The translations under genes were made by a program, and so were the position numbers. A model generated the notes under the pieces. The model made no database searches, was not told the origin of the DNA, and saw nothing but the letters and a program-made list of their open reading frames with translations. Below are positions 12,267 to 23,081 of a DNA stretch of 34,680 nt, piece by piece (the stretch's first letter is position 1; each line of letters starts with the position of its first letter). The stretch comes from a virus (taxonomy: Duplodnaviria > Caudoviricetes), in IMG/VR virus record IMGVR_UViG_3300005326_000096, positions 1 to 34,680 of that record, one strand, 5' to 3'.

Positions 12267-12722
12267 GTGGAAAATTTAAAAATGATATTTTATGCCACTC
12301 TAACTCTTGTTGGGATTACTTTGGCAATATTTTTAATTGGAAATTTAATTATTAAGTTGATTGGATTATCTCTTATATTTACTATTAACCACGCAATTGC
12401 AGGGGTAATCTCAATGGTATGTTTAAAATACCTAATCAACTTTTTAGTTATTAATGCTTCACCACAAATGAGTAATCAGCATTTAGAAGATGAGATTAAG
12501 TATTTAAAAGATGCAAACGTTGGATTGACAATTATTTTAGGATCATTTATTAAGTATTTTGGCGGATACACAATGGAAGTTCAGATTCCAAAGTATATTG
12601 TTAATCAAATAAAAGAAGATGTTGAAGTAATTTATTCCTCTGATGATAAAAACCAATTAGAAGTTTTTAGACTTAAAGGGGAGACTACGGAGGGAACAAA
12701 TGGCAAAAATAGTCTTAATTAA
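12267..12722 (+). CDS. membrane protein
   Basis: Two N-terminal hydrophobic helices; GGGGAGG RBS with GTG start. Confidence 0.65.
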   Translation: MENLKMIFYATLTLVGITLAIFLIGNLIIKLIGLSLIFTINHAIAGVISMVCLKYLINFLVINASPQMSNQHLEDEIKYLKDANVGLTIILGSFIKYFGGYTMEVQIPKYIVNQIKEDVEVIYSSDDKNQLEVFRLKGETTEGTNGKNSLN

Positions 12723-13488
12723 TAAAAATGAGATTGAAAAAGAACTAAAATTAGCAGGATGGCACGCTTCTGTTTCTTACGATTCTAAGAATTTTAATGA
12801 AACAGTAGTTGCTAAACATTGTATTGAAGCAGGACATGGAACTACTACAAGAGGTATGCGTTTTATATTTGAAATTTCAGAAGTTTCAAGAGCATTTTCA
12901 CATGAGTTTGTTCGCCATGAATTGGGAGTGTATAAGGTGCAACGTAGTCAACGTTATGTTAATGAGGATGGATTTAAGTATGTAACCCCTGATGCTTTAG
13001 TAGACATTAGGGTTCTTGCAAAGATTCCTTTAGTAACCTTTGACCCAGTTAGTAATAATTATACCTATGAAGACACTATTGAGACTTGGCTGTCTTACCA
13101 TGACTTCCAAGATATTGTTAAACAAATGTATACTGGATTCGTTAAAGCAGGTGCTAAACCAGAAGATGCACGATATGCTTTAACAAATGCTACCTTCACC
13201 AAAATTCATGTAATTATGAATTGGGAAGGACTAGACCAGTTTTGTTATCGTAGATGTTGCACTAGGGCACAGTGGGAAATTCGTGATGTTGCATTTCAAG
13301 CTAAAGCAGAAGTAACCAGTGTTAGTGAGTTTTTAGGAAATAAATTAGGTGCACATTGTTTAAAACATGGATATTGTCCAGAGTTGCCTAAAGGATGTGG
13401 GATTGCCCCAAATAAAAAAGATTTTCTGGACACTTTTCTTATTGGTAAGGAAGTTATACAGAACCAGAAGTACAAATTAGCCGATTAA
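12700..13488 (+). CDS. thyX: FAD-dependent thymidylate synthase
   Basis: SRAFSHEFVRH...QRSQRY, EDARYAL and RAQWEIR motifs. Confidence 0.93.
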   Translation: MAKIVLINKNEIEKELKLAGWHASVSYDSKNFNETVVAKHCIEAGHGTTTRGMRFIFEISEVSRAFSHEFVRHELGVYKVQRSQRYVNEDGFKYVTPDALVDIRVLAKIPLVTFDPVSNNYTYEDTIETWLSYHDFQDIVKQMYTGFVKAGAKPEDARYALTNATFTKIHVIMNWEGLDQFCYRRCCTRAQWEIRDVAFQAKAEVTSVSEFLGNKLGAHCLKHGYCPELPKGCGIAPNKKDFLDTFLIGKEVIQNQKYKLAD

Positions 13489-13517
13489 ATTTATTTTATG
13501 CAAAGATGGTCTAACTA

Positions 13518-13546
13518 TTGACCATCTTCTATTTTTAATATATAAT
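13518..13546 (+). promoter_or_regulatory. sigma-A-type promoter overlapped by an inverted repeat
   Basis: TTGACC-17 bp-TATAAT; AAGATGGTC(13503-11)/GACCATCTT(13520-28). Confidence 0.65.
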
Positions 13547-13577
13547 AAAAACAATCACATTAAAGGGGATATGAAAT

Positions 13578-14162
13578 ATGAATGTAATTAAAGTAAAAAA
13601 ATTAAGTGAAACAGCAGTAATACCTAAATATACTCGCGCAGGAGATGCGGCATTTGATTTAGTGTCTAATGAATTTCATTTAATTCAGCCACAAGCTACT
13701 GTAGGAGTAGGAACAGGGTTAGCATTTGAAATTCCAACAGGATTTGAAGTAGAGGTAGTACCAAGAAGCGGTATTAGTTTAGAAACACCTTTAAGAGTAG
13801 CTAACACACCAGGTACAATTGATGAAAATTATCGCGGAGAGTTAAAAGTTATTCTAACTAATTCAATTCCACAGACCTTTAATTTATTTACGGAGGAAAA
13901 TGGTATTGTGTCCTCCGATGAAAAGTGTGTTCCATTTGTATTTGATTTAAAATGTAATCAAGTATCAATTGAAGATGTTCAAAAGGAAACTGGTGCGAAG
14001 TTTGATGGAGAAGTAGTAGCTTACCCTACATTTTATATTCGTAAAGGAGATAGAATCGCGCAAGGTAAGTTAAGAGAAGTATTTGTAGCTAGTTTTGAGG
14101 AAGTAACAGAACTAAGTGATAGTAATCGAGGGACAGCAGGATTTGGAAGTAGTGGTGTCTAA
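13578..14162 (+). CDS. dut: trimeric dUTPase with internal insertion
   Basis: Motifs AAFDL, PRSG, GTIDENYRGE, GDRIAQ, RGTAGFGSSG. Confidence 0.95.
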   Translation: MNVIKVKKLSETAVIPKYTRAGDAAFDLVSNEFHLIQPQATVGVGTGLAFEIPTGFEVEVVPRSGISLETPLRVANTPGTIDENYRGELKVILTNSIPQTFNLFTEENGIVSSDEKCVPFVFDLKCNQVSIEDVQKETGAKFDGEVVAYPTFYIRKGDRIAQGKLREVFVASFEEVTELSDSNRGTAGFGSSGV

Positions 14163-14181
14163 AATTTAGGAGGGTTTATAT

Positions 14182-16080
14182 TTGATTATAGATGTAAGTT
14201 ATACGCAGGAGTTTGAGAACAAGTTCGAGAAATTAAAAAAATTACCTCATGCACAAGAGTTGTTGGATTTAGATGGAATTGGAGCGCAGACTGATTTAGC
14301 GGCTTTTTCTCGCCAGTTCTTTTCTAAAAAAGGAGTAACTACCGCAGATGTTAGTATTGATAGTAACGCTAATGTTGATGATATGTCAGTTATTAGTTTT
14401 GAGGTAGAATCAACTAAACCTCAACACAAGTTAAATTCTTACTTCCTTTTGTATAAGTATGGAAAGAAGTTATTTGATGAAGAAACAGCATATAAAATGA
14501 TGGAAGCACAATTCAATAAGGATATTTATATTAATGATTTTTACGCTTTTAATAAACCTTATTGTTTTAATTTTAGCTGTGTTGATATAATGTTCCAAGG
14601 GTTGCCATTCGTAAAGAAAATTAAATCAGAAGCACCAAAGAATTTCATTTCAATTAATGGACAGATTCAACAATTCATTAATTATGCTTCTAATTCAATT
14701 GCAGGAGCAGTAGGATTGGCAGACTTCTTGTTAGTATATAGTTACTACACAAAGAAATTGCTTACTGAGTATGAAGATGTACCAGAACATTTCAAATGGT
14801 ATTTAATTAAACAGGAACTTCAAAGCACAATTTTTACAGTAAACCAACCTTTTAGGGGAGGAATTCAATCTCCATTTACTAATATAAGTATTTATGATGA
14901 TGTTTTCTTAGCTAAATGGTGTTCAGAGTATTATTTTCCTGATGGAAGTCAGCCTGACATTGAGATTGTTAAGAAGTTACAAGAGTTATACATTGATATA
15001 ATGAATGAAACTTTGTGTAGAACACCTGTTACTTTCCCTGTTACTACTGCTTGTTTGGCAGTAGATGAAAATAGAGAAGTTATTGATAAAGACTTCCTTA
15101 AATTTATTAGTCAAAAGAACTTAGAGTTTGGATTCATTAACATTTATGGTGGAGCAACTTCTACTTTGTCCTCATGTTGCAGACTTCGTTCTGACAGCAC
15201 TAAGGAATACTTCAACCAGTTTGGAGCAGGTGGAACTAAAATCGGGAGTTTGGGAGTAGTTACAGTTAATTTACCAAGACTAGCAGTAAGAGCGCAAGGA
15301 AACATTAAAAAGTTTTATGCAATGCTTGATGAGTTAGTTGAATTAGTGGCTAAAATTAACCATGTTAAACGCTTCATTATTTTGAAACGTGTAGAAAATG
15401 GAAACCTACCATTATACACCCATGGTTATATGGACACCAGAAAACAGTATAGCACAGTTGGATTAACTGGAATTAATGAATCTGTTAACCTTTTGGGAGC
15501 AGATATTTTGACAGAAGAAGGGCAAGAAATTGTTAAAGAACTTCTAATGTCAGCCAATGATAGAAATGACCGCATGGAAGCTTTATTTGGTACTCCACAT
15601 AATTGTGAGCAAGTTCCTGCTGAGAATAGCGCAATTAAGTTAGCGCAAGCTGATATTCTATTAGGATACCAAGATGATTATGAGGTATATTCTAACCAGT
15701 TTATTCCTTTAATTACTAAAGCAGATTTGCTTGATCGTATTAAACTACAGGGAATGTTTGATTCGTTTATGTCTGGAGGGGCTATTTGTCACTTAAATAT
15801 AGACACTAGAATTGAAGACGTTCAACAAATGATAGACTTAATAGAATACTCTATTAAAGCAGGAGTAATTTACCAAGCTATTAATTACAACATTCAAAGA
15901 TGTGAAAATGATCATATGAGTGTAGGAAAAGCCCATAAATGTCCAACTTGTCAAGGAAAAATTACAGACAATTTCACAAGGGTTGTTGGATTCCTAGTTA
16001 ATACTAAGAATTTCCACAAGAAAAGAAGAGAACACGATTACCCAAATCGCCAGTTCTATAAAGGAGTAGGACTTAATTAG
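14182..16080 (+). CDS. nrdD: class III (anaerobic) ribonucleotide reductase, no ATP cone
   Basis: Finger loop SSCCRL, EQVPAE, CENDH...CPTC metal site, glycyl-radical motif RVVGFL. Confidence 0.93.
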   Translation: MIIDVSYTQEFENKFEKLKKLPHAQELLDLDGIGAQTDLAAFSRQFFSKKGVTTADVSIDSNANVDDMSVISFEVESTKPQHKLNSYFLLYKYGKKLFDEETAYKMMEAQFNKDIYINDFYAFNKPYCFNFSCVDIMFQGLPFVKKIKSEAPKNFISINGQIQQFINYASNSIAGAVGLADFLLVYSYYTKKLLTEYEDVPEHFKWYLIKQELQSTIFTVNQPFRGGIQSPFTNISIYDDVFLAKWCSEYYFPDGSQPDIEIVKKLQELYIDIMNETLCRTPVTFPVTTACLAVDENREVIDKDFLKFISQKNLEFGFINIYGGATSTLSSCCRLRSDSTKEYFNQFGAGGTKIGSLGVVTVNLPRLAVRAQGNIKKFYAMLDELVELVAKINHVKRFIILKRVENGNLPLYTHGYMDTRKQYSTVGLTGINESVNLLGADILTEEGQEIVKELLMSANDRNDRMEALFGTPHNCEQVPAENSAIKLAQADILLGYQDDYEVYSNQFIPLITKADLLDRIKLQGMFDSFMSGGAICHLNIDTRIEDVQQMIDLIEYSIKAGVIYQAINYNIQRCENDHMSVGKAHKCPTCQGKITDNFTRVVGFLVNTKNFHKKRREHDYPNRQFYKGVGLN

Positions 16081-16115
16081 TCCTACTTTTCCCTTATAAG
16101 GCAACAGGAGGAAAC

Positions 16116-16553
16116 ATGAAAATAGCAGGAACTCAGTTTACGTTGAAGGATAGAGCATTTGAGATTTATATTAGTGGATGTAGTATTCACTGTAAGGGAT
16201 GTCATAATCCCGAATTATGGGATTTTAATTATGGGGAAGAATTAACTATTGATTACATTAGTGATCTTATTGATAAAATTGAAGATGCAGGGAAACTTGT
16301 AAAGGAAATTAGAATATTAGGTGGAGAACCATTACAAAATAATCAAGATGAATTACTTGATTTAATACTAGACCTTAAACTATTTTTTTGTGGAGATATT
16401 AAATTTGTTTTGTTCACTGGATTTGATTTAAAAGAAGTTCCTCACTGGTGTTTAGATGTATTTGATTCTGTTAAGTATGGAAGATATATTGAGGAATTAA
16501 GAGTAGATGGGCAAGATTATGCTAGTAGTAATCAAGGAGTATGGATTAAATGA
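16116..16553 (+). CDS. nrdG: anaerobic RNR activase (radical SAM)
   Basis: GCSIHCKGCHNPELW, LGGEP, ASSNQ; adjacent to nrdD. Confidence 0.92.
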   Translation: MKIAGTQFTLKDRAFEIYISGCSIHCKGCHNPELWDFNYGEELTIDYISDLIDKIEDAGKLVKEIRILGGEPLQNNQDELLDLILDLKLFFCGDIKFVLFTGFDLKEVPHWCLDVFDSVKYGRYIEELRVDGQDYASSNQGVWIK

Positions 16554-16735
16554 TTGGGAAAAGGGATATAGTTGTTACAATTGTATATACTTCTGATTAT
16601 ACTAACGGAACAGGAAAAATTAATGAATTAAGAGTAAAAACAACTGCCAATTCTGAAATTGTTGAATACCCAACGATATTAGGAATATTAGAAATGGCAA
16701 AAGAAAAATTTATAAAAATGGGAGATAGTAAATGA
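16550..16735 (+). CDS. hypothetical protein, 61 aa
   Basis: ATGA-coupled on both sides. Confidence 0.65.
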   Translation: MIGKRDIVVTIVYTSDYTNGTGKINELRVKTTANSEIVEYPTILGILEMAKEKFIKMGDSK

Positions 16736-17301
16736 AAATATTTCTTATTAGTGGAAAAGCAGAAAGCGGAAAAGATACTTTTCATAATATTGGAGCAGAT
16801 TATATTGAAGCAACTCAACCTCAACTAATTCCTGTTAGAATAGCATTTGCGGATGCAGTAAAACAAAGTGCTAAAGATATGGGATGGAATGGGGAAAAAG
16901 ATGATAATGGTCGATCTGGATTAATTATGATCGGGGATGGAGCAAGAAAGTATTTTGACCCTCTTATTTGGGTTAAGAAAGCAGTAAACAAATTAGAAAG
17001 TTACCATTATAGTAATACTAGAAGGGATGATTTTGTAATTTTTATTACTGATTGCAGATACCCAAATGAAGTAGATATGTTAAAAGAATGGGCAGAACAA
17101 AAGGGAGTTAAAGCATATGCTCTACGTGTTGAAAGACCTAACCATATTAGTAAATTAACTAAAGAGCAGTTATTAAATGATAGCGAGATTGCTTTAGATA
17201 ATTATGGTCAATGGGATTTCATTGTTGAAAATTCTGGAACTTATCAAGATTTTATTGATAGTGTGGAAACTGTAATTGATTGTGTTGTAGAGGGGAAATA
17301 A
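16732..17301 (+). CDS. deoxynucleoside monophosphate kinase-like P-loop protein
   Basis: SGKAESGKDT P-loop, AFADAVK, ITDCRYPNE. Confidence 0.8.
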   Translation: MKIFLISGKAESGKDTFHNIGADYIEATQPQLIPVRIAFADAVKQSAKDMGWNGEKDDNGRSGLIMIGDGARKYFDPLIWVKKAVNKLESYHYSNTRRDDFVIFITDCRYPNEVDMLKEWAEQKGVKAYALRVERPNHISKLTKEQLLNDSEIALDNYGQWDFIVENSGTYQDFIDSVETVIDCVVEGK

Positions 17302-17315
17302 CCCCTCTTTTATTA

Positions 17316-17344
17316 TTGACAGGCAGTATTTAGTATGTTATTAT
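17316..17344 (+). promoter_or_regulatory. sigma-A-type promoter
   Basis: TTGACA-17 bp-TATTAT with TG extended -10, just after the terminator-like AGAGGGG/CCCCTCT hairpin. Confidence 0.7.
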
Positions 17345-17360
17345 AAAGGAGAAATGAACA

Positions 17361-17606
17361 ATGACTATTAACAGAGATAACTACAGAAAGTGGGCAATTA
17401 AAAATGGATATGGGATTATAGAAGAAAATGCTGAAATGACTTTTAATGGACTTGATTTAAAGAAAGAAAAATTTGGGGTAGCCTACTGTCCATGTATTGC
17501 GCCTTTTGCACATTCAAAAGAAATGATCTGCCCTTGTGAACCTACTAAGAAAAAAAGTACAGGGAACGTTGGAGAATGTCATTGTGGTCTTTTTAAATGG
17601 GAGTGA
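17361..17606 (+). CDS. ferredoxin:thioredoxin reductase catalytic-subunit-like protein
   Basis: Diagnostic CPC...CPC...CHC motifs (YCPC, ICPC, GECHCGLF). Confidence 0.85.
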   Translation: MTINRDNYRKWAIKNGYGIIEENAEMTFNGLDLKKEKFGVAYCPCIAPFAHSKEMICPCEPTKKKSTGNVGECHCGLFKWE

Positions 17607-17611
17607 TATAA

Positions 17612-18817
17612 ATGTATATACTTCATAACGGAAAAATTGTTGACAATGAAACAGGAGAGATTGTAGTAAACGACCCTTCCCCTAAGTTTCAAGATTGGAA
17701 GTATGATGATTACTACAACGAGTTTATTAAAAACGGGCAAATAAGATTCCTAGAACCAATGACAGCAAAAGAGTTAAAAGCAGGGGAGGAAATTCCTCTA
17801 AAAGGGCATATTGCGGAGGAGAAATTAGATGGACACAGAGCAACAATGTCTATTACTAGCAATGGAAATAGATTTTTTAGCAGAAGAATTAGTAAAAAGT
17901 CAGGATGGTACTCAGAAAACTCAGACAGTCTTCCGCACTTGCGAGACTTCAACTCTAAGAGATTCATGGGAACAATACTTGACGGAGAAATTACAATGTC
18001 TACGTTTTCAGATGTTCAAGGGGTTACAGGAGCATTGCCTGATACTGCTTTGCAGAATCAAGCGGAAAGAGGATTTGCTGTTTTTAATGCCTTTGATATA
18101 CTTTATTACAATGGAATTAATGTCCAAGCTATGCCTTTGTGGAAGCGGAAGTTATTTTTGGGGAAAGTCATTGAAGGAATCAACTGCCCATATATTAGAC
18201 GAGTACGAGTTTTTGCAACGGCAGACACGTATGCAGAGTATAAAGATATTGTTGATGAAAGAGTAACCAACTTTAAAGACCTTTTAGCAAAAATGTGGGA
18301 AGAAGGAAAAGAAGGACTAATAATTAAAGACCTAGGTGCTAGATATGAGCAGAAAAGAAGTAAATATTTCTTGAAGCTGAAAGACTGTATCTATCGTGAT
18401 GTAGTAGTAATGAATTATGAAGAACCTACTAAATTCTTTGATGGAAAGTCTCCAACTTGGGATTATTGGGTATGCTATGACGACCCTGATTTTGTATTAG
18501 AGGAAACAAGAGTTGTAGCTGATCAAGATGAATATGCACCTGTTACTAAACCTTATGCTAATGGTTGGATAGGAGCAATAACTTGTGGAGTGTATAAAAA
18601 CGGAGAATTAATTCCTGTTGTTAGTCTTAAAGGGTTTACTGATGAAGAACTTGAATATATTAAGAATAATAAAGAAAAATTAATTGGAACTGTACTTGAA
18701 GTTAAGGCGCATATGATTTCAGATAGGGAATTAGGAACATTAAGACACCCTAGATTCAGTAGATGGCGACCAGATAAAGGAGCAGAACAATGTGATTGGG
18801 AAAGTCATGTTATCTAA
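17612..18817 (+). CDS. ATP-dependent DNA ligase
   Basis: EEKLDGHR (motif I), LDGEI, AFDIL, EGLIIK, LKLK, LRHPRF. Confidence 0.9.
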   Translation: MYILHNGKIVDNETGEIVVNDPSPKFQDWKYDDYYNEFIKNGQIRFLEPMTAKELKAGEEIPLKGHIAEEKLDGHRATMSITSNGNRFFSRRISKKSGWYSENSDSLPHLRDFNSKRFMGTILDGEITMSTFSDVQGVTGALPDTALQNQAERGFAVFNAFDILYYNGINVQAMPLWKRKLFLGKVIEGINCPYIRRVRVFATADTYAEYKDIVDERVTNFKDLLAKMWEEGKEGLIIKDLGARYEQKRSKYFLKLKDCIYRDVVVMNYEEPTKFFDGKSPTWDYWVCYDDPDFVLEETRVVADQDEYAPVTKPYANGWIGAITCGVYKNGELIPVVSLKGFTDEELEYIKNNKEKLIGTVLEVKAHMISDRELGTLRHPRFSRWRPDKGAEQCDWESHVI

Positions 18818-18947
18818 AATAAAATGCGATTGTAAAAATTGCGTAAATACATTAAAGACAAATCCTCTTTGCAGATTAGGGAGGACTCAAAACAAATCTA
18901 AGTGTAAATGGTTTGTCTTTAAAAGTAATGGAGGAAAGCGTAAATGA
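18807..18947 (+). CDS. 46-aa Cys-rich microprotein (not in ORF track)
   Basis: MLSKIKCDCKNCVNTLKTNPLCRLGRTQNKSKCKWF...; ATGA overlap with the NUDIX gene. Confidence 0.5.
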   Translation: MLSKIKCDCKNCVNTLKTNPLCRLGRTQNKSKCKWFVFKSNGGKRK

Positions 18948-19381
18948 TAGAAAATGTAGCGAGTGCTTATATTTTAAGCAAGGATAATAAACTTTTATTA
19001 ATTATGCACAAGAAATATGGAGTGTATATGCCTGTAGGTGGACATTGTGAGGGAGAAGAAGAAACTTGGGAAACAGCAATTCGTGAAGCCAATGAGGAAT
19101 CAGGTATTGAGATTACATTACCATCTTTTAATATTCACCCAAATTGTGTGTCAGTTCCAGTTCCATTTGCTATTCAATTGGAGAAGATTACTGATGAACA
19201 CATTCACCGAGACTATTTATATGTAACAAGAGTCAACAAACTTGCTAGAAATATTGATGTTGTTACCGAGAATGATTTACCTTATAATTGGTTTACATTT
19301 GAAGAAGTTTATAATAGTGATAATTTATGGTCTGATGTAAAAACACACGCATTAGCAGTATTATCGGGGGTAGTAAGATGA
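18944..19381 (+). CDS. NUDIX hydrolase
   Basis: Nudix box GGHCEGEEETWETAIREANEESG. Confidence 0.9.
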   Translation: MIENVASAYILSKDNKLLLIMHKKYGVYMPVGGHCEGEEETWETAIREANEESGIEITLPSFNIHPNCVSVPVPFAIQLEKITDEHIHRDYLYVTRVNKLARNIDVVTENDLPYNWFTFEEVYNSDNLWSDVKTHALAVLSGVVR

Positions 19382-19607: not shown

Positions 19608-20534
19608 ATGACAATTTTAAAAGAAAACATACAAGATTTTAAAAAGTATACTGATATTCTTCGCATTGAAAAGTGTAAGGAGATTATGGATGCTAAAGAA
19701 GTGGTTGTTACTGAAAAGATTCATGGAAGTAATTTTAGAATTAAAGTAACCAAAGAAGGATTAATTCTAGGTAGCAGAAATTTAACCCTCGATGGAACTA
19801 ATGATAACTTTAGTCAATTTATGCCTATTTTTGAAGCACTCGACCATGATAAAATTATTGCAGAGTTTGTAGCAGAATTAATTGTAGGTAGCGAAGTAAT
19901 TATCTTCGGGGAAGTATTTGGAGCAGGATATGCTAAAGGATGTACCTATAAAGACGTTCATGCTTTTAGAGTGTTTGATATTTTTATTAATAATAAACCA
20001 GTAGATTATGATGAATTAGAAGCAATTTGTATTAGACTTGGTTTAGTAACAACCCCATTTTTGTATCGAGGAAAACCTGATTATGAATTATTCCTTTCTT
20101 TAATTGGAAAATCTAATCTTACAGTAGAACAAGATACAGGAGAGGGAATTGTAATTAAAGCATATGGACATTATGATCGTAACGGAAGACCTTTATTTGC
20201 TAAAATGGTAAGTGAAAGATTTGCGGAAGCTAAGTCTGTACCAGTGCCAATCTCCGCTGAAAAGATGGCGGAAAGAGAAGTATGTCAATTATTTGCTGAA
20301 ACGTATGTAACAGAGGGAAGAATTAATAAAATGATTGCCCAGTTAAAAGAAGCAAATATCTATACAGGGGAAATGCAAGATATGAAAAACTTAATTCCTG
20401 CTTTATGGAAAGATTTGGAGAAGGAAGAAAGTGATGTATTAGAGATTTTATACAATAAAGGTATTAACAAGAAGTCTATTAATGGAGCATGTACTAAATT
20501 ACTAGGAAAAATTTATGCAACTATGCAAAAATAG
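19608..20534 (+). CDS. RNA ligase, Rnl2 family
   Basis: TEKIHGSNF (motif I), FGE, FDI, EGIVIK, FAK motifs plus an Rnl2-like C-terminal helical domain (YVTEGRINKM). Confidence 0.88.
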   Translation: MTILKENIQDFKKYTDILRIEKCKEIMDAKEVVVTEKIHGSNFRIKVTKEGLILGSRNLTLDGTNDNFSQFMPIFEALDHDKIIAEFVAELIVGSEVIIFGEVFGAGYAKGCTYKDVHAFRVFDIFINNKPVDYDELEAICIRLGLVTTPFLYRGKPDYELFLSLIGKSNLTVEQDTGEGIVIKAYGHYDRNGRPLFAKMVSERFAEAKSVPVPISAEKMAEREVCQLFAETYVTEGRINKMIAQLKEANIYTGEMQDMKNLIPALWKDLEKEESDVLEILYNKGINKKSINGACTKLLGKIYATMQK

Positions 20535-20537
20535 TTG

Positions 20538-20566
20538 TTGACTTTGATACTAGGTAGTGCTATAAT
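20538..20566 (+). promoter_or_regulatory. strong sigma-A-type promoter for the ncRNA array and Ro60 gene
   Basis: TTGACT-17 bp-TATAAT with TG extended -10. Confidence 0.8.
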
Positions 20567-20707
20567 AATAAATGTAAAGAGGAACTGCAAAGTTGTTATA
20601 ACTTTAGTACCTCCAAGCTAAACCTCCTTTATTGATTTGTGTTAGTTTGTTGTCGGACAGAGGGGAAACGAGAAGTGAAAACCTTCTCCATCCCCTCACA
20701 ACTACAT

Positions 20708-20835
20708 AAGAGGTGCTAGAAAGATTACATCTTTTGCCATTATAAAGAGTAGTTCAGAGGTAGAACACCGAGATATGCTTCTCGGAGGACGTTGGTTCGA
20801 ATCCAACCTAAAGTTATCTTTCATTATTTCCTCTT
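20708..20835 (+). ncRNA. Y-RNA-like clamp unit 1 carrying a permuted tRNA-like domain (CCA end upstream)
   Basis: AAGAGG/CCTCTT and GAAAGAT/ATCTTTC stems; D arm, anticodon-like arm and T arm (GTTGG-TTCGAAT-CCAAC); TCTTTTGCCA lies 5' of the body. Confidence 0.8.
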
Positions 20836-20840
20836 TACAT

Positions 20841-20967
20841 ATGGGGTGCTAGAAAAGTTTACATCACTTCTAATGACGATTTGTGAGTTCGAATCTCACT
20901 CTTGCGTAAACACGCAGGATAGTTTAACTGGTAAAACGCGAAAATAAACTTTTCATTATTTCCCTAT
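20841..20967 (+). ncRNA. Y-RNA-like clamp unit 2 carrying a circularly permuted tRNA-Arg(UCU)
   Basis: ATGGGG/CCCTAT and GAAAAGTT/AACTTTTC stems; order is anticodon loop CTTCTAA, T arm, loop-closed acceptor stem, D arm. Confidence 0.85.
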
Positions 20968-20974
20968 TACATAC

Positions 20975-21075
20975 CCTGTGAGGATAGAACACGCGGCTAT
21001 CACCCAAATCCCGAATGATACTAGTAAATGTCGGGAGGATTGTAGGAGATGTGGGACATGCGACCCCACTACAGG
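20975..21075 (+). ncRNA. orphan four-way-junction RNA
   Basis: CCTGTG/TACAGG closing stem enclosing GATAG/CTATC, TCCCGA/TCGGGA and GTGGG/CCCAC hairpins. Confidence 0.55.
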
Positions 21076-21084
21076 ATATTAATT

Positions 21085-21159
21085 ATGAGGTGCTTGTAAG
21101 ATTACATCAACAAATTATTTGAATTAGTTACACATTTAGTCTTACACCTTTTTCCTCAT
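21085..21159 (+). ncRNA. clamp unit 3, short AU-rich cargo
   Basis: ATGAGG-TGCT-TGTAAGAT-TACATC...GTCTTACA-CCTTTTT-CCTCAT. Confidence 0.75.
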
Positions 21160-21220
21160 TACATATTAATGTCGTCACTTATGGGACTGTGACGTTAAGT
21201 ATAGTCTCAAACCAATTTAA

Positions 21221-21281
21221 TTGAGGTGCTCGTAAGATTACATCTAGGAAAATGAAACGTTATCTTACACTTTTTCCTCAG
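21221..21281 (+). ncRNA. clamp unit 4, minimal cargo
   Basis: TTGAGG-TGCTC-GTAAGAT-TACATC...ATCTTAC-ACTTTTT-CCTCAG. Confidence 0.75.
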
Positions 21282-21297
21282 CTAATTAAAACTAAAT

Positions 21298-21467
21298 ATG
21301 GGGTGCTTAGAAGTCTACATCAAACATTAATAAGAAGACAGTTTACCAATTTTGAGTGTGAGATTCCTGAGTTATTTAAACGTCCTTCGGGACAACAATT
21401 ATTCTTGATAACGGATAGAGTATCTAAGTCGTTACCGAGACAAGTTGACTTCTTAAATCTTCCCCAT
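21298..21467 (+). ncRNA. clamp unit 5, multi-hairpin cargo
   Basis: ATGGGG-TGCTT-AGAAGTC-TACATC...GACTTCT-TAAATCTT-CCCCAT; internal GTCC-TTCG-GGAC tetraloop hairpin. Confidence 0.75.
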
Positions 21468-21560
21468 TTTTATTTTATAAGCCGAGTGTGAAAGTGAAGC
21501 GTACATCACTAACCACTTGGCTTTTATTTATCCAAATTTAAAATTAAAGGAGAGATTATT

Positions 21561-23081
21561 ATGACAGTAAAAACATTTGTAAGTGCAAACCCTAAGTCAA
21601 GACCAGTAGTAGGATTTGAGGGTGGAGTAGTTTATGATATGGAACTTAAAGAGTCCATCGTAAATATGCTTTGTTTGGGATTAATTCAAGGAAATTTCTA
21701 TCAAGACGAAAAAGAAGTTATTCAACGTACTAAGGACGTTTATACAAATGCTCTTAAAAAATGCCCTGATTTCCTAGCTAAAGCGGCAGTATACGCACGT
21801 AACACAGTTGGAATGAAATTACAACCAAATATTGCATTAGTTTATCTTTCCACACTAACAGATAAAACTTTGTTTAAGGCTGTGTTCCCACAAATTATTA
21901 AGAACCCTAAAGACTTAAATGACTTTGTTAACATTTGTCGCAAAGCAGGGATTCGTGAAGGATTGGGACGTTCTGTAAAGAAAACAGTAAACATGTGGCT
22001 GAATCACTTTATGACAGAATACCATGCTTGCCGTTATGGTGGAAAACTTGCGGAAGTATTAAAAGCTACTAGACCAGTACCTTGTGATAGTGAAGTACAA
22101 GAAATATTCTCTTATATCACTACAGGGAAAACTGATTGTGGAATGTTACCAAGAGCAGAAGCATTACAAACTGTTATTAGTGCATTAAATAGTGGAATGG
22201 TAAACCAATTAGTTCTTTCCACTATTACTGTTCATGGATTACAAATGGAGGAATTAAAACATACTTTTGGAAACTTAGATGCAGACCAAAAGAGAAAAGT
22301 TTTTGAGTTCTTCATTCCTAAGTTAGCTTTTATGGCTACTGTGTCAAACTTAGTTACTATTGAACGTGTTTATGATGGGAAAGTTCCAAAACATGTTGTT
22401 GATATGGTTTCAGCTAAGTTGATGGACGTTGAAGCATATAAAAAGTCTCGTATGTTACCTTTCAGACTTATTACTGCAAGGGATATGACTTCTGTTAGAG
22501 ATTGGCAACGTGCTATTGAGAGATTAATAACCGCAGGAGTTAAAGGAAACTTTGATGTACTAGAAGGTACTAGAACATTAGTAGCAGTAGACACATCTAG
22601 TTCAATGAATAGTGCATTAACACCATCTTTAACTTGTAAAACTGTAGCTTCAACATTTGGAGCAATGTGTATTCTTGGAATCGAAGGTTCTTCTGCTTAT
22701 GCAGTAGCAGACACAATGAAACCAGTACGAGTTATGACCGATGAAGTCTTTACACTTGCTAAAGAAATTGCTAGTTTAAATGTTGGATATGGGACTTATT
22801 TTGAGCAGATTATGCAACATTACACAGATCAGAAATATGTAATTCTTATTACAGATGGTGAGTCTGCGGATAACTTAGAGAAAAAATGGATAAGTAATAA
22901 AAAAGTAGCTGGGGCTAAGTTAATCATTTGGCAGTTACAACCTTATGGACATACCCTAGCTTCTCAAAAACGTAAAGATGTAATTTATTTTCAAGGATAT
23001 TCCGAGTCAATCTTAGGAGCGATTCGTAATGTAATTGAAGGCAAGGGACAACTTGACGATATTGAAAAAATTACATTATAA
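21561..23081 (+). CDS. rsr: Ro60-related protein (TROVE + vWA domains)
   Basis: TROVE signatures (GNFY, KAAVYAR, GLGRSVKKTVNMW, SRMLPFR) and vWA MIDAS residues (VDTSSSM, GT, ITDGE); adjacent Y-RNA-like elements. Confidence 0.88.
   Translation: MTVKTFVSANPKSRPVVGFEGGVVYDMELKESIVNMLCLGLIQGNFYQDEKEVIQRTKDVYTNALKKCPDFLAKAAVYARNTVGMKLQPNIALVYLSTLTDKTLFKAVFPQIIKNPKDLNDFVNICRKAGIREGLGRSVKKTVNMWLNHFMTEYHACRYGGKLAEVLKATRPVPCDSEVQEIFSYITTGKTDCGMLPRAEALQTVISALNSGMVNQLVLSTITVHGLQMEELKHTFGNLDADQKRKVFEFFIPKLAFMATVSNLVTIERVYDGKVPKHVVDMVSAKLMDVEAYKKSRMLPFRLITARDMTSVRDWQRAIERLITAGVKGNFDVLEGTRTLVAVDTSSSMNSALTPSLTCKTVASTFGAMCILGIEGSSAYAVADTMKPVRVMTDEVFTLAKEIASLNVGYGTYFEQIMQHYTDQKYVILITDGESADNLEKKWISNKKVAGAKLIIWQLQPYGHTLASQKRKDVIYFQGYSESILGAIRNVIEGKGQLDDIEKITL

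Follow-up and report, generated by a model that had tools for sequence, protein, structure and literature searches.

Published bacterial Y RNAs mimic the elbow of tRNA without having an anticodon loop, and the purpose of their tRNA module has been a standing question since 2014. In the available text of Wang et al. 2018 (10.1101/312249), YrlA has no anticodon loop and most YrlA RNAs are look-alikes of circularly permuted tRNAs whose acceptor stems are closed. The permuted order as such is therefore not new. Hughes et al. 2020 (PMC7790460, partial text) suggested that YrlA might be a competitive inhibitor of an anticodon nuclease. The permuted tRNA genes described in the accessible part of PMC3978253 are processed at a bulge-helix-bulge by a splicing endonuclease.

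Phage Ro60 has been linked to countering the Ppl defence (PMC11482910, partial text) and, in jumbo phages, to RNA repair (PMC7824862, partial text), and abundant RNAs have been found upstream of Ro60 in a Listeria phage (PMC12282133, partial text). The sole phage Ro60/Y RNA pair that has been studied biochemically acts on PNPase, and the anticodon is not mentioned in the portion of that report at hand (PMC12135203). A pattern of evasion has been described for phage tRNAs facing anticodon nucleases (van den Berg et al., PMC10264068, partial text). Our literature search, which covered few subscription papers, found no Y RNA with an intact anticodon arm and no matured permuted tRNA in a phage.

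Here we describe Y2, a 127-nt element on the plus strand of the 34,680-nt viral record IMGVR_UViG_3300005326_000096 (Caudoviricetes). The whole of this stretch was analysed and is called the window below. Our leading explanation, drawn from sequence comparison and held with about equal belief and doubt, is that Y2 is a divergent YrlA-like Y RNA that keeps an anticodon loop and decoys the anticodon nucleases of the host.

Results

An array of RNA units fills a gene-free stretch of about 1 kb between an Rnl2-type ligase gene and a Ro60/Rsr gene (Table 1). The record is about 36% complete and has terminase, SPP1-type portal, capsid and tail genes. The capsid protein is 67% identical to its counterpart in Bacillus phage BCD7, and we infer that the host is a low-GC member of the Bacillota. 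The region 12700-19381 encodes ThyX, dUTPase, anaerobic NrdD/NrdG, a dNMP kinase, a ferredoxin-thioredoxin reductase-like protein, DNA ligase and a NUDIX protein, and this block of nucleotide metabolism suggests an anaerobic host. The AlphaFold model of the Rsr protein (mean pLDDT 82) resembles Ro60 structures (E 2e-14, TM about 0.7). The promoter-like site ahead of the array has 11 of 12 consensus matches and ranked first of seven sites in the region.

Table 1. Positions of the ligase gene, the RNA array and the Rsr gene in the window, and of clamp arrays in other loci (numbering of the named locus).
Feature	Position	Strand	Basis and remarks
Rnl2-type ATP-dependent RNA ligase gene, 308 aa	19608..20534	+	PF09414, E 2e-23; phrog_548; best solved relative T4 RNA ligase 2, E 2.8e-11
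Sigma70-type promoter-like site, extended -10, predicted driver of the RNA array	20538..20566	+	Consensus match only
Structured leader ahead of the first clamp unit	20572..20700	+	Three hairpins predicted, -35.1 kcal/mol
Y1	20709..20835	+	Clamp unit with arms of a tRNA ordered D, anticodon-like, T; 39.9 bits to Rfam tRNA (20748-20809)
Y2	20841..20967	+	YrlA-like Y RNA holding a complete permuted tRNA body; Rfam YrlA 29.1 bits; ARAGORN, re-ordered, 117.5
Y2 clamp 5' strand	20841..20863	+	Predicted Rsr-binding handle; terminates in a YUAY-containing motif; common to five units
Y2 tRNA positions 29-43	20864..20878	+	Anticodon loop (UCU 20869-20871) plus the anticodon stem's 3' strand; sequence, and covariation in relatives
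Y2 variable loop (4 nt) and T arm	20879..20899	+	Sequence; compensatory changes in relatives
Y2 closed acceptor hairpin	20900..20919	+	Positions 66-73, 5-nt linker, positions 1-7; C1-G72, U73, no CCA
Y2 U8A9, D arm (U20, G18G19), G26, C27G28	20920..20940	+	Partners of C27/G28 are positions 43/42
Y2 clamp 3' strand	20941..20967	+	Pairs with the clamp 5' strand
Skipping-rope RNA (Rfam RF02924)	20973..21077	+	45.7 bits, gathering 36.7, E 6.9e-8; within the array, no clamp
Y3, short clamp unit without tRNA core	21085..21159	+	Clamp motif
Y4, minimal clamp unit	21221..21281	+	Clamp motif; no tRNA core
Y5, long clamp unit without tRNA core	21298..21467	+	Clamp motif
Ro60/Rsr gene (TROVE and vWA), 506 aa	21561..23081	+	PF05731, E 6.5e-9; AlphaFold match to Ro60
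Bacillales/giant-plasmid arrays	L087 1130-3700; L090 1680-3700; L136 4400-4750; L137 4020-4800		

Several other features of the array were observed. In Y1, the D, anticodon-like and T arms stand in normal order, with a non-canonical loop of 6-8 nt and nearly no acceptor stem. Unpermuted (Y1) and permuted (Y2) tRNA mimics adjoin in one array and have the same clamp. The first 13 nt of the leader (20572-20584) are the full complement of 20828-20840 (the end of Y1 and the spacer) and match 92% of 21152-21164 in the same way; this complementarity, as read from the sequence, could compete with clamp formation or guide processing. TACATA recurs in spacers beside the units (20703-20708, 20836-20841, 20969-20974 and 21161-21166) and is a candidate processing signal. 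The presence of a skipping-rope RNA in the array hints at a link between the orphan family RF02924 and Ro60 loci.

Y2 contains a complete tRNA body in permuted order. The first-pass annotation had placed a circularly permuted tRNA-Arg(UCU) at 20841-20967, and the sequence read out from the record agreed with it in coordinates and letters. In tRNA numbering, positions 29-73 (20864-20907) come first, followed by the 5-nt linker (20908-20912) and positions 1-28 (20913-20940). U8, G18G19, A15/U48, a standard T loop, the loop CUUCUAA, U20 and the absence of an encoded CCA had been described, and all were found. The acceptor stem has the seven base pairs that had been assigned to it (one of them G.U) and also an eighth, between U73 and A-1, which leaves a loop of 4 nt. 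Joining 20940 to 20864 gives a canonical cloverleaf, as had been proposed: ARAGORN called tRNA-Arg(TCT) with a score of 117.5 in the re-ordered sequence, versus no tRNA in the window in genomic order at the default threshold and only a pseudogene-level call at a relaxed one. The 28/29 joint scored highest among the 77 joints tried with ARAGORN (the runner-up scored 112.9), and some call was obtained from 49 of the 77. No ARAGORN call was obtained in any rotation from 1000 dinucleotide shuffles of the 77-nt core.

The clamp forms a long end-to-end stem with an internal loop, the defining shape of the Y RNA class. It consists of 6-bp and 10-bp stems with compensatory changes, and the 10-bp inner stem (20852-20861/20945-20954) is complementary throughout. 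The first bases of the 3' part of the tRNA body belong to the clamp motif that all five units of the array (Y1-Y5) have in common. The claim that the anticodon stem is fully paired only across the 28/29 junction needed qualification, because an anticodon stem with four of five pairs also exists in genomic order without the junction. In addition, a single linear RNA supplies both strands of the stem, which can therefore pair across the junction with no covalent link between its two sides. If the anticodon stem pairs in intact Y2, the 28/29 junction is the branch point of the flanking stem.

Y2 belongs to a family of clamp units found next to related Rsr genes. A profile search with the Rsr clade gave 2 viral, 26 metagenome (one of them the window record) and 10 genome loci, and three plasmid regions were added; the loci come from Bacillota and spirochaetes. 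The clamp motif had 92 matches in 27 of the 37 Rsr-neighbour loci examined, with up to 10 in one locus. Six of 149 genomes of one clostridial order had matches, which gave two further arrays; a class-wide scan matched 2 of 401 genomes. The closest relatives, P0001-P0007, have 63-84% identity and stand outside this set. Pattern scans of viral contigs (56, 40 and 42 stretches) gave no Rsr loci additional to L001 and L058, and the named phages had distant Ro proteins only (18 records, 21-31% identity).

From this small, related and hand-picked set, we chose by eye 20 units with a T arm, an acceptor hairpin and a D arm inside the clamp. When re-ordered, 17 of the 20 passed ARAGORN (scores of 105-125), versus none in genomic order; L092 and L058:3095 parsed poorly and did not pass. 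The class-II-like units L061:3745, L072:3882, L088:2356 and L089:3691 have less regular loops and were excluded from the loop counts, and a count of hairpins with U33 and a purine at 37 was left unused because it was confounded by T loops. Eleven anticodons are represented among the 17 class-I units. The point at which the clamp enters the tRNA varies from 26/27 (L001) through 28/29 (the window, L091 and L089) and 30/31 up to 33/34 (L093), where loop bases 32-33 are supplied by the clamp motif itself. Compensatory changes were found within the T arm and the clamp stems, and five relatives had Rfam YrlA scores of 28.8-56 bits.

The contents of the clamp differ between loci. Bare anticodon hairpins, with neither D arm nor acceptor, are held in clamps at L088:2207, L091:1478, L091:3797, L058:2857, L188:1300 and L094:2104. 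Further clamp units carry a hairpin plus a T loop, and most of the Bacillus-type units hold no tRNA parts. Arrays of as many as 10 clamp units lie upstream of the same Rsr clade in Bacillales genomes and on giant plasmids, and their inserts are long, AU-rich and free of tRNA parts (Table 1). The spirochaete units (L093 956-1093 and L094 1942-2080) have one more small hairpin, which is placed after the D-side strand and before the 3' strand of the clamp.

Clostridial islands (L061, L072, L086, L088, L089 and L091) combine tRNA clusters, clamp arrays and Rsr with Rnl2, RtcB, R2K ATP-grasp and RNase T-like genes and an extra EF-Ts gene, and are translation-rescue islands. A Pfam match of an EF-Ts protein to a toxin domain scored 21 bits against a cut-off of 52 and is put down to chance. 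Ligases of the Rnl2 or RtcB type were neighbours at 5 of the 12 relative loci scanned, with Rnl2 in L072, L086, L089 and L091, and RtcB in L061 and L086. The RtcB of L061 (6073-7275) is spread over two consecutive ORFs and is either split or frameshifted. In the L058 record, the ligase is about 55 kb away from the array. Second, truncated islands (L189, G001:C1:2598745-2601795, and L190, G004:C85:6051-9101) retain the tRNA cluster plus a single Lys(UUU) clamp unit; the stretch examined contains no Rsr gene.

The split anticodon stem covaries in the family. In the ViennaRNA ensemble of Y2, the clamp and the acceptor hairpin had pair probabilities of 0.57-1.0, the anticodon arm about 0.05 and the junction pairs about 0. 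The anticodon arm is thus weak in the energy model, and support for it comes from comparative evidence. We set the register by U33 and a purine at 37 only, which was unambiguous in 11 of the 17 units. The cross-junction pairs 27-43 and 28-42 held in 21 of 22 cells, compared with 10.2 +/- 2.3 with permuted partners, and five pair types were seen at each of the two positions in class-I units. In an 8-sequence alignment, 97.5% of anticodon-stem cells pair, compared with 20-48% in slid controls, and four of the five pairs change on both sides; the aligned sequences are related to each other, so that counts from shuffling them are not probabilities. U33 was kept in 13 of 14 class-I units and the purine at 37 in all 14; neither was part of the scoring. 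Based on these comparisons, we conclude that the split anticodon stem of the family covaries and, as far as sequences can tell, is able to pair within the uncut RNA, with no ligation step.

The anticodon changes faster than the rest of the unit. In 22 pairs of units that are at least 75% alike (pairs that are non-independent, with groups assigned by eye), anticodon sites differed in 31 of 66 comparisons (0.47), compared with 0.18 for the rest and 0.11 for positions 32/33 and 37/38. For example, L061:3557 and L188:1501 are 96% alike and have the anticodons CCA and GUU, respectively; a further unit, L089:3505, has Lys(UUU). In one series of orthologous units, an unchanged 5-bp stem holds a Lys(UUU), Lys(CUU), Asp(GUC) or Glu(UUC) loop, and position 38 switches with the anticodon.

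These observations bear on whether the anticodon arm is a functionless remnant, left behind as tRNA genes were captured by the clamp time and again, with only the D/T elbow mattering, as in YrlA. Real tRNA gene clusters beside the array in the islands would be a ready source, many clamp units are without any tRNA part, and the break points vary. However, the cross-junction pairs covary, U33 and the purine at 37 are retained while anticodon turnover outpaces change in the body, and bare anticodon hairpins persist without an elbow. We consider it quite unlikely that the arm is a relic, and believe instead that the anticodon loop is probably the working part of Y2.

Clamp-borne loops match host tRNA loops where we checked. 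Hairpin loops identical to loops of real tRNAs were present in 10 of 96 inserts, versus 1.2 +/- 1.1 in 200 shuffles (maximum 6), with 76 ARAGORN-called tRNA genes of the examined loci as the reference and with some of the ten being near-duplicates or chance. The clamp-borne Asp and Glu loops (three clamp units) have C38 and are identical to the loops of chromosomal tRNAs in 5 of 5 genomes. The islands' own tRNA-Asp genes (2 genomes) and tRNA-Glu genes (3 genomes) deviate at positions 37/38. Host-type loops in clamps beside deviating island tRNA genes are the pattern expected of a bait next to evading tRNAs, as evasion is presented in the available text of PMC10264068. The loop of Y2 recurs in chromosomal genes for tRNA-Arg(UCU) in 4 of those 5 genomes, which are clostridial.

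The same anatomy and family data would be expected if intact, Rsr-bound Y2 used its loop to recruit or titrate some other reader of the anticodon, such as an aminoacyl-tRNA synthetase, a modification enzyme, a T-box riboswitch, a repair enzyme or a PNPase-type effector. Y RNAs are known as tethers to effectors (10.1101/312249 and PMC12135203, each in partial text), C38 is an identity element for Asp (Table 1 of PMC9976931, partial text), and genes for EF-Ts, RtcB, Rnl2 and an RNase T-like protein adjoin the arrays of relatives. Still, quick turnover of the anticodon on near-identical bodies suits a conflict better than a fixed housekeeping partner, and we regard another reader as unlikely.

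AGA had also been noted as common in the genes of the window. It accounts for 169 of 277 Arg codons and for 2.4% of 7057 codons in 31 window genes, which bears out the remark and says little without the host genome. Codon compensation by Arg(UCU) was considered and set aside: AGA is the main Arg codon, yet chromosomal Arg(UCU) tRNAs with the same loop are present in those 4 clostridial genomes.

Maturation of Y2 into a working tRNA is highly improbable. The first-pass annotation had offered, as its second alternative, that the core is excised from the clamp, that the neighbouring Rnl2 closes the 28/29 nick and that the acceptor linker is opened, which would give a tRNA-Arg(UCU) reading AGA. 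Rnl2-type ligases are suited to sealing nicks inside helices, a property of T4 Rnl2, and the nick would here lie inside the anticodon stem with such a ligase encoded next to the array. RNA ligases are also frequent neighbours of relative arrays, the re-ordered sequence is a good tRNA whose 28/29 joint was the best of the 77, and junction positions vary among the true permuted tRNAs of C. merolae too (PMC3978253, partial text). Y2 also has the Arg identity elements C35 and U36, and its U73, G2-C71 and C3-G70 are in the bacterial Arg row (and also the Cys row) of Table 1 of PMC9976931, as extracted. If Y2 were matured in this way, it would be the first such permuted tRNA in a phage or bacterium.

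The evidence against this alternative comes from both Y2 and its relatives. There is no bulge-helix-bulge at the junction, which is flanked by 2 and 4 unpaired nt and then the 10-bp stem, and no member of the splicing endonuclease family was found among 32 window proteins scanned (from a record that is about 36% complete). A20 is the main determinant of Arg in bacteria (PMC9976931, partial text), and Y2 has U at this position. No single cut site in the clamp motif yields a perfect stem for all members of the family, many clamp inserts are unable to give a tRNA (those without a D arm and acceptor among them), anticodons are swapped on near-identical bodies, and the distance between ligase and array in L058 also weighs against sealing by a neighbour. 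None of the seven Trp/Asn-type units has G73 on a 7-bp stem, and the Ala, Leu and Ile types lack G3.U70, a long arm and C4-G69, respectively. Contigs of sequencing runs X1-X3, which have low depth and cover Y2 in part, contained no junction joints, a result that bears on maturation in neither direction; run X2 is labelled RNA-Seq and flagged 'probably DNA'. A record of depth 2 from X2 has T at 20870 (UCU to UUU) and, at 20914, a loose end of 12 letters; either may be an error, and neither was used.

A variant of this idea, which we regard as a long shot, is that tRNAs are kept in reserve inside the clamp, as in a cage, to become working tRNAs on infection: the core would be trimmed out, Rnl2 would seal the nick, and host RNase P together with the CCA enzyme would open the acceptor, with no need of a splicing endonuclease.

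Processing of the acceptor end without ligation is very unlikely as well. In M. smegmatis, host RNase P opens the acceptor loop of YrlA, which has a 7-bp stem, and CCA is added (PMC4201824); the same events here would give a two-piece, possibly chargeable mimic on Rsr. Acceptor stems are 7-8 bp in most units of the family, and A73-CCA is encoded by L001:208 and L058:3190. However, Y2 has an 8-bp stem closed by a loop of 4 nt, has C1-G72 and lacks both CCA and A20, several relatives have stems of 5-6 bp, and only 5 of 17 units have a discriminator that fits their anticodon (two units with short stems being scored as misses). Of those five, four miss another listed determinant, the exception being L001:208. 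Based on these results, we are fairly confident that Y2 remains unligated and uncharged.

Discussion

The analysis supports the first of the two alternatives in the first-pass annotation, a Y RNA that displays an intact anticodon loop, through the Ro60 neighbour, the shared clamp and the comparison with the family. Y2 is very probably a Y RNA whose clamp is bound by the phage Rsr; the 5' motif GNCGAAN0-1G of YrlA is absent, so this prediction comes from position and shape. If Y2 is a decoy, the array would be transcribed from the promoter-like site at 20538-20566 and the transcript processed into units, and Rsr would hold Y2 by its clamp. Folded Y2 would be L-shaped, the clamp helix leaving the anticodon stem on its 5' strand, between positions 28 and 29, with a host-like Arg(UCU) loop exposed and the acceptor end sealed. 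Because of the sealed end, Y2 could be neither charged nor used by ribosomes. It might then compete for, or be sacrificed to, an anticodon nuclease that cleaves tRNA-Arg. In the most speculative step, the ligase encoded next to the array might re-seal cut loops, since the two halves of the cut RNA would stay together in the clamp.

Two sets of observations limit the proposal that Y2 is a decoy or count against it. The Bacillus-type clamps are mostly without tRNA parts and three of the five units in the window have no tRNA core, so decoying is not the general job of the clamp. Moreover, A73-CCA lies inside the acceptor loop in the two closest phage relatives (2 of 17 units). One of these, L001:208, has the main Val set together with the encoded CCA, which fits a chargeable form, and has degenerate D and T loops.

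What sets the family apart is that it keeps the anticodon loop, that the anticodon varies fastest, and that the loop copies that of the host where checked while the island tRNA genes deviate. The idea of a Y RNA as a competitor of a nuclease (PMC7790460, partial text) becomes directly testable with matched pairs of nuclease and anticodon. If Y2 is such a decoy, phage Ro60 loci would gain a concrete role, as an RNA-based counter-defence that can be re-targeted.

Y2 resembles YrlA (RF02553) in several respects. It is on the same strand as, and 594 nt upstream of, the TROVE gene, within the 4-kb criterion for YrlA; it has the order of T arm, closed acceptor stem and D arm, with the tertiary bases of tRNA (U8A9, G18G19 and the Levitt pair); UUAC at 20859-20862 corresponds to the YUAY ahead of the tRNA module; and the stem of 5' and 3' ends and the several Y RNAs per locus are also alike. 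In contrast, the Rsr-recognition motif of YrlA has no match in 20501-21600, Y2 has a canonical anticodon loop and a covarying stem where YrlA has no such loop and a handle that continues the anticodon stem, and the RF02553 score of Y2 (E 0.018) is under the gathering threshold of 69 bits. Y2 differs from YrlA on these three defining points and is therefore a variant, not a member of RF02553. The earlier description of YrlA as having no arm before the T arm holds in part: Chen et al. 2014 (PMC4201824) show a poorly conserved stem-loop there, 'V', which is not described as an anticodon arm. Deinococcus radiodurans Yrn1 is a Y RNA that has been modelled with an anticodon-like arm (PMC4201824), and Y1 has the same D-anticodon-T order and a non-canonical loop. 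Unlike Yrn1, which is unpermuted and has a 6-nt loop, Y2 has a canonical 7-nt loop and the order of YrlA.

The permuted tRNA genes of C. merolae, green algae and Thermofilum pendens (Soma 2014, PMC3978253, partial text) also have the 3' part first, a short linker at the acceptor end and a cloverleaf on re-ordering, and Y2 has the same inverted halves and canonical tRNA. It differs from them in having no bulge-helix-bulge and a 28/29 junction that is outside the four C. merolae types in the available text of that paper. Y2 is also phage or bacterial, its ends are locked in a shared clamp, and identity elements in its family do not track the anticodon, nor does Y2 have the full cognate set.

Two phage systems are close in function or layout. 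Thermus phage phiLo has a Ro60 with Y-like RNAs, Yrl1 and Yrl2, directly upstream (PMC12135203, partial text; PDB 9kop and 9l5y), and the window Rsr matched these structures with E values of 6e-13 and 4e-12. Yrl1 and Yrl2, unlike Y2, carry the CGAA motif; the activity shown for that system is to bind and damp PNPase, and the word 'anticodon' is absent from the main text at hand. Finally, phages counter anticodon nucleases with tRNAs and RNA repair, and Rnl2, RtcB, tRNA clusters and TROVE proteins co-occur there (PMC10264068 and PMC7824862, each in partial text), as they do in the loci described here. Those phage tRNAs are functional and avoid the loop that is cleaved, whereas the clamp-borne loops that we checked match the loop of the host.
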